Virus record (IMG/VR): IMGVR_UViG_3300036791_000379
Coordinates: 5,021-69,020 of that record
Strand: one strand, 5' to 3'
Source of the DNA: a virus
DNA: 64,000 nucleotides
Shown in pieces: positions 17,132-17,923 of this stretch. The translations under genes were made by a program, and so were the position numbers. Below the pieces are notes generated by a model that was not told the origin of the DNA, searched no databases, and saw nothing but the letters and a program-made list of their open reading frames with translations. Each line of letters starts with the position of its first letter. Positions within the stretch are counted from its first letter, which is position 1.

Positions 17132-17923
17132 GCGAGCCCGCGTCCATGAGAGCACCAAGCTGAGCGAGCGAGTCACTACAGCTGAGAGCGCCAAGTAAAA
17201 TGAGCGAGCCGATCCCACGATGAGCACCATGGATGATGAGCGAGCCGACATGCGCGAGAGCACCACCATAGTCGAGCGAGCCATGCTTCGTGAACGCACC
17301 AAGTTGAGCGAGCGAGCCAATGAAATCCGCGAGCGCCAAGGCACATGAGCGAGCCGTTACGCAGAGAGCACCATCACAGAGGAGCGAGCCAAAGGAGTGC
17401 AAGGACACCACACTCCACCGAGCGAGCCGAGCGCATTGAGCGCACCAACATGAGTGAGCGAGTCAATGATGCCGAGAGCGCCATTGGGATGAGCGAGCCA
17501 TTGATACCGAGCGCACCAAAAATAGAGAGCGAGCCGTGACGCGGAGAGCACCAAGGCGAAGCAGCGAGCCATTCTATCCGGGAGAGCACCACATCCTCGG
17601 AGCGAGCCGGGATGACCGAGAGCGCCACATCCAGTGAGCCCAATACAAGAGAGAGCACCGTAGCGCTGGAGCGAGCCATCACGCAGGAGAGCACCGAGAA
17701 ACGAGAGCGAGCCATGCGAATGGAGAGCACCACATCCTCGGAGCGAGCCGGTTGGGAAGAGAGCACCGAAAAACGAGAGCGAGCCGGTCCTGATGAGAGT
17801 ACCGAATTAAGGGAGCGAGCCACACGAGCAGAGCGCACCACGCACCATGAGCAGCCGAGCACATCGAGAGCGCCATCGAGATGGAGTGAGCCAACGTCAG
17901 GAGAGCACCAAACACGTTGAGCG
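17130..17923 (+). repeat. TIGR-like dual-repeat array, block 2 (about 22 units of 36 nt)
   Basis: same GAGCGAGCC-N9-GAGAGCACC-N9 periodicity, e.g. repeats at 17130, 17166, 17202, 17238, 17274 and 17669, 17705, 17741, 17777, 17813. Confidence 0.92.

Follow-up and report, generated by a model that had tools for sequence, protein, structure and literature searches.

The closest described systems are the FpTIGR-type dual-repeat TIGR-TasA loci (Faure et al. 2025, PMC12045711; Xu et al., bioRxiv 10.64898/2026.09.09.750476). In these, edge and loop repeats alternate around spacers of about 9 nt with a 36-nt period, truncated edge repeats stand at both ends of the array, a solo Nop-domain protein is encoded, the location is in phages, and adaptation genes are absent. 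The emergence and expansion of the arrays were called an enigma by Faure et al. (PMC12045711), who suggested that the short repeats limit recombination, and spacer acquisition was stated to be unknown by Xu et al. (bioRxiv 10.64898/2026.09.09.750476). Term searches of these two papers and a third, within a collection that covers few subscription papers, returned no account of spacer duplication or shuffling. The origin and growth of TIGR arrays are thus a named open question, and the arrays compared here are heavily rearranged, contrary to the suggested limit on recombination. They show frequent reordering of whole units and occasional exchange of halves.

The locus belongs to a soil phage and lies on a 64,000-nt stretch of a viral contig (positions 5,021 to 69,020 of IMG/VR record IMGVR_UViG_3300036791_000379; hereafter the window, to whose plus strand the coordinates below refer), and it shares all of the features listed above. 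Judged by its sequence, it is an ordinary member of the dual-repeat TIGR-TasA class as defined in PMC12045711. The tasA gene (15395-16261) encodes a Nop-domain TIGR-associated protein of 288 residues, which was matched by phmmer to TasR (9MTY; E 6.5e-13, residues 42-180 on chain residues 125-263) and to TasH (E 2.2e-9); IS621 came far behind as a PDB match (E 0.38). The Pfam match was a weak one to Transposase_20, and no nuclease family was found among the Pfam matches. Residue 42 of TasA aligns with residue 125 of TasR, and about 40 residues are left at the N-terminus. TasA is predicted to carry neither RuvC nor HNH, with no room for an N-terminal nuclease domain, and was assigned to the TasA class because the N-terminal stretch that carries the TasR and TasH nucleases is missing.

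The array comprises 28 units, numbered from 16259, in which two repeats of 9-10 nt alternate with a 36-nt period. By repeat parse it consists of six units (16259-16480) and, further on, the 22 units in which the recurring halves lie (17129-17923). Two cargo ORFs (16470-17131) split it, the second of which (16904-17131) is common to a sister phage and anchors the comparison described below. Each unit reads edge, spacer A, loop, spacer B; the edge repeat was identified as such because the array starts and stops with truncated copies of it (16259-16264 and 17919-17923). With the repeat parse used here, 46 of the 56 spacers are 9 nt long. The single 25-36-nt repeat with long spacers that defines CRISPR was not found, as repeats of 9-10 nt alternate. 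In the test for box C (CCA), both repeats retain CC with a purine after it, and the first base is A or G in 45 of the 46 9-nt spacers; in the test for the UG of box D, a T stands ahead of the conserved G in only 16 of 46, and box D is partly kept. Boxes C and D of dual-repeat TIGR may diverge (PMC12045711). A terminator is expected behind such an array; folding of the stretch 3' of it (17924-17975) does not exceed that of shuffled sequence (z -0.56). For a member of this class, processing into 36-nt tigRNAs and RNA-guided DNA binding would be predicted. Directly downstream are a tyrosine integrase gene (18197-19528) and an excisionase-like HTH gene (17847-18377). A second TIGR array with the same repeats lies outside the window, on the minus strand at about 1270-2130 of the 96-kb contig. 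At least 21 of its units were parsed, none of its spacers is exactly shared with the main array, and no tas gene was seen beside it.

An earlier note on this DNA had read several 9-mers as half-spacers reused with different partners. These 9-mers were found in place, and all lie in slot B, 3' of the loop repeat. Spacer B7 (17157-17165), which adjoins the A half at 17139-17147, has one mismatch to B11 (17301-17309), whose A partner differs from that of B7 and whose downstream neighbour is unit 12. B19 (at 17591) and B23 (at 17732) are identical and belong to the longest exact repeat, 30 nt of loop, B spacer and edge (17581-17610 and 17722-17751). B22 (17696-17704) and B24 (17768-17776) differ by one mismatch, and their loop-B-edge stretches agree at 26 of 27 positions. 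What had been taken for a truncated copy of the B19 9-mer at 17627 proved to be a full 9-nt spacer, B20, of which the first six bases are those of B19; the truncation belongs to the edge repeat that follows (17636-17640, the whole element being 17627-17640). The A partners of the three pairs differ at 7, 7 and 6 positions, where the mode of the background spacer distance is 6, and in this respect the reading of different partners was borne out.

Spacers begin with a purine almost without exception, and slot B is rich in A; chance recurrence was therefore estimated by shuffling columns within each slot, which keeps slot- and position-specific base use. Under this null 0.21 pairs are expected at one mismatch or less, compared with the three seen (P=0.0015). 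The exact pair B19/B23 gave P=0.009, four pairs among the 8-nt cores gave P=0.0001, and P was 0.018 when unit 7 was left out. Irregular units had been said to cluster in the distal part of the array, which the counts do not support; five were counted in units 1-14 and six in units 15-28 (Mann-Whitney P=0.21), and P was 0.25 within units 7-28 alone. Recurrence is also not peculiar to slot B in general, since the second array holds an A-slot pair with one mismatch and unrelated partners, and cases in other arrays are divided equally between the slots (see below). From the probable source run, a Logan contig covers 15842-18600 with 0 differences, a check on assembled contigs that represents another assembler on possibly the same reads and not a separate sample. 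An assembly error, which the note had allowed for as a source of the recurrence, is unlikely given this second assembly without differences and a longest exact repeat of only 30 nt. A hairpin of B19, edge and A20 does not rise above shuffles (z -0.62), and the 27-mer of loop, B19 and edge occurs in no other viral contig.

A survey was made of 102 other non-redundant arrays (1814 units, this phage excluded), collected by pattern and protein searches. It can be seen that, first, exact same-slot pairs within arrays number 50, with 1.1 expected from per-array shuffling, a 45-fold excess; cross-slot pairs number 4 with 0.66 expected, at least one of these being a mis-parse, and the same-slot excess is the greater (P=0.0016). 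Secondly, given one identical half, the distance between the partners is bimodal, with 20 pairs at 0-2, 4 at 3-4 and 18 at 5-9. The 20 pairs at a distance of 2 or less are whole-unit copies. The 18 pairs with unrelated partners come from 14 arrays, nine in slot A and nine in slot B, and their distances match the random background. Thirdly, 12 of these 18 half-copies have the same loop variant, compared with 6.4 expected (P=0.003), as copying from array DNA would give. Half re-pairing is general to this repeat family.

Single arrays add detail. In L111 a two-unit block recurs in which only one A half is replaced and the flanks are identical, and in L073 and L096 repeated blocks begin in the B register. 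Unit 5 of L087 consists of the A half of unit 14 and the B half of unit 15 of L071, units that are adjacent in L071. An apparent unit with A and B swapped in L122 was rejected as a mis-parse. Re-insertion of circles at loop repeats, looked for as permuted B-edge-A copies, was also rejected; its only matches lay inside one tandem triplication.

A junction can be followed in the sister phage, a contig seen in a second soil run and recovered via the cargo protein as L215 and L216 (JGI and Logan contigs that agree fully where they overlap). Across the cargo gene and the beginning of the array, the sister phage and the window are 84% identical. Its array has nine units and starts right after the cargo stop codon. 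The A half of its first unit shows three mismatches to A7 and six to A11, and the B half shows one mismatch to B11 and two to B7. After this unit come unit 12 with an identical B half, later unit 14 with both halves identical, and an end like unit 26. A 144-bp block of the window (17152-17303) is absent from the sister phage, 17152-17159 being joined to 17296-17303. By loop, spacer and edge variants the junction was placed in an 8-nt stretch that spans the end of the loop repeat and the first bases of B, an interval that later mutation could blur. In the window, B7 adjoins the A half that matches that of the sister phage at this position, and B11 retains the sister's downstream neighbour, unit 12; the assignment to A7 was made by position and three mismatches, A25 being equally close by sequence. 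The difference is an indel that keeps half-unit register. Whichever genome gained or lost the block, a re-paired guide is present in one of them; the comparison is with one array of nine units and fits a gain here as well as a loss there.

Reciprocal products were not seen, there being no other copy of A11, A19 or A22-A24 in either array of the phage. Among the closer TasA relatives examined, none bears on B19/B23 or B22/B24, and L197, L198 and L200 have at most a few diverged whole units in common with the window array. One whole unit is common to L197 (970-1005) and L215 (505-540) with three differences in total, at different array positions. L201, from the same JGI sample as L215 and L216, has a tasA region of 86% identity; there (2233-2648) the truncated edge repeat again forms the end of tasA, an unrelated gene replaces units 1-6, and no array stands behind tasA. 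The A and B halves of unit 14 (17391-17419; L215 476-504) pair with each other, its loop repeat is altered, its hairpin fold has a z of about -3, and several neighbouring units differ in the sister phage. This unit may be a structural or regulatory element instead of a guide.

How often guides break at the loop and how often at the edge was compared among related phages with flanks 74-93% identical, in groups chosen by at least two whole units in common. For shared spacers, A-B pairing across the loop was kept in 184 of 204 cases and broken in 20 (10%), whereas neighbour order across the edge was kept in 62 of 153 and broken in 91 (59%); the choice of groups inflates the pairing kept, and chance matches may account for about 3 of the 20 broken pairings. 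Exact whole units in common number 54, compared with three exact halves that have changed partner. Exchange of halves does occur but is minor, and whole guides move far more often. From these comparisons come a first estimate of how whole-guide and half-guide breakpoints compare in number and a junction that can be tested. Of the earlier proposal that half-units are shuffled by recombination, one part stands: partners are changed by DNA-level events in half-unit register, as the sister phage and the 102 arrays indicate, and alignment of related arrays did reveal half-register junctions at B7/B11 and in unit 5 of L087. Shuffling of halves as the main mode of change is not supported. Half re-pairing is informative on array evolution as a minor mode, and the usefulness of re-paired guides is only putative.

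Unit order is scrambled, and not just trimmed at one end, among L071, L087 and L090 and among L043 and L057, which suggests that single guides move as edge-to-edge cassettes. L068 also has many whole units in common with L071, L087 and L090, in scrambled order. CRISPR repeats act as recombination sites, by which spacers are deleted, duplicated or reordered without Cas1-Cas2. Spacer loss and duplication via repeat recombination in CRISPR are likewise cited in PMC12045711. Unlike a crossover at a CRISPR repeat, one at a TIGR loop repeat would give a hybrid guide, and with it a target sequence that is new. A further difference is that the polarity of CRISPR, conserved order with additions at the leader end, was not seen in the TIGR relatives compared.

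The array probably evolves by homology-driven DNA rearrangement that keeps register, moving mostly whole guides and in a minority of events re-pairing halves. Under this mechanism spacer copies would nearly always stay in the same slot, as observed here. Most rearrangements between relatives would break at edge repeats and so shift whole A-B guides, and a minority would break in the loop repeat or at the start of B, leaving the same half with a new partner as at B7/B11; breaks of both kinds were observed in the present comparison. An out-of-register crossover at the loop repeat would join the A half of one unit to the B half of another. The crossover partners could be two related arrays (those of sister phages, of a prophage, or the second array of the phage) or two places within one array. 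Between diverged sister arrays, a loop crossover would yield in one step a duplicate half with zero or one mismatch whose neighbours on either side are unrelated. That intact pairs are in excess may reflect selection for guides whose 16-18-bp target is preserved, or a process biased towards edge repeats; selection would fit because both spacers are needed in tandem. Re-paired guides would then be a by-product.

Candidates for the agent of rearrangement are the RecT/YqaJ pair of the phage, recombination by the host, and slippage during replication. A YqaJ/RecE-like exonuclease (10750-11586) and a RecT-like annealing protein (11583-12587), a candidate recombination pair (10750-12587), are encoded about 3 kb upstream of tasA. 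In this respect the locus resembles the Red/RecET systems of homeologous recombination that underlie phage mosaicism, lambda Red being able to recombine DNA of 22% divergence (Martinsohn et al. 2008, PMC2327257), and the sister arrays are likewise diverged but similar. The likeness has its limits: the relatives L200 and L202 carry ERF in place of RecT, and the link of the pair to the array is that of a candidate. Moreover, the stretches in common at the recurrences are just 9-30 nt, which is short for annealing proteins.

A more elaborate alternative is a two-level diversification without Cas1-Cas2, in which whole guides are copied as edge-to-edge cassettes and one half of the spare copy is then replaced, from another unit or from DNA next to a half-matched target, to give new working guides. 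It would answer how tandem-spacer arrays adapt; we regard it as doubtful. That half re-pairing by itself is the regular route of the phage to new working guides is unlikely. In the group of L071, L087 and L090 re-paired units do persist, one B half occurring with two A halves and each pairing in two genomes, and TasR accepts swapped spacers and some mismatches (PMC12045711). Against this, pairing is kept far more often than order, most halves are unique, and no target was found in the searches of the phage's own genome and of fetched loci. TasR cutting leaves an 8-nt 3' overhang (PMC12045711), and from this cut geometry we derived a predicted target in which spacer A precedes the reverse complement of spacer B. 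When searched in the 96-kb genome (gaps of -2 to +2, halves of 9 or 8 nt), such self-targets were no more frequent than with shuffled pairs, and the targets of 1565 distinct units gave one exact match in 1.57 Mb of fetched loci compared with one or two in shuffles. Scans of viral contigs for 16-nt targets gave 13 scattered matches for unit 23 and 12 for unit 11, uncontrolled counts that were given no weight. The three full 18-mers for unit 11 probably reflect coding bias, since the site, beginning with ATG, can be read as six codons in common use.

Expected numbers also speak against a combinatorial route. All 49x49 re-pairings of the phage's units together would be expected to give about 0.1 exact 16-bp matches per 100-kb genome and about 9 per 8-Mb host, so that a chosen rival would seldom be hit by blind re-pairing. 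The suggestion that re-pairing makes new guides in place of an adaptation step was not upheld: it brings no new sequence, and within this array no copy within one mismatch exists for any of the 28 A halves or for 22 of the 28 B halves, so that it cannot replace acquisition. Units 12, 14 and 26, intact across relatives, are the likeliest of the guides to have real targets. Unit 4 (16373-16398) has a diverged counterpart at L198 3407-3442, in a phage whose TasA is 76% identical. Its predicted target begins with a 9-mer that we take to resemble a DnaA box, and this could be chance.

New halves might instead be templated, after duplication of a unit, by target DNA neighbouring the site to which the guide is bound through one half. 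Such primed half-acquisition would explain why new partner halves rarely occur elsewhere, why only the A half between two identical flanks was replaced in L111, and why 21 of the 54 exact copies within arrays stand beside a new partner, a rate above that between relatives; engagement of a single spacer is seen in a structure (bioRxiv 10.64898/2026.08.11.744272). However, loss of the donor unit accounts equally well for the missing partners, unit 5 of L087 was built from two existing halves, and no enzyme or target was identified, which leaves this reading distinctly unlikely. Duplication of whole units followed by ordinary drift of one half is improbable as a full explanation. It fits the 20 whole-unit copies, some partners 2-4 bases apart, and the enrichment of long shared prefixes such as that of B19 and B20; it is largely refuted for exact pairs, in which one half is exact and the upper mode of partner distance coincides with that of the random background, and the 144-bp indel in half-unit register argues against it as well.

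Separate acquisition of guides from repeated target motifs is possible in principle, and one or two cross-slot identities are real. As A and B are interchangeable in targeting (PMC12045711), copies should then appear in both slots, yet same-slot copies dominate and repeat variants travel with them, and we consider convergence very improbable. Least probable of all is chance, repeat slippage or assembly error: there are only three pairs in a slot of skewed composition, and B7 and B11 end in a repeat-like TGAGC, but the composition-aware test, the excess in other arrays, the non-repeat end of the B11-type spacer in the sister phage and the identical second assembly all stand against it.

Arrays interleaved with cargo genes recur in the window and in L200, where about 54 units lie in many short arrays between small genes (10900-17170), on the way from tasA to the integrase.
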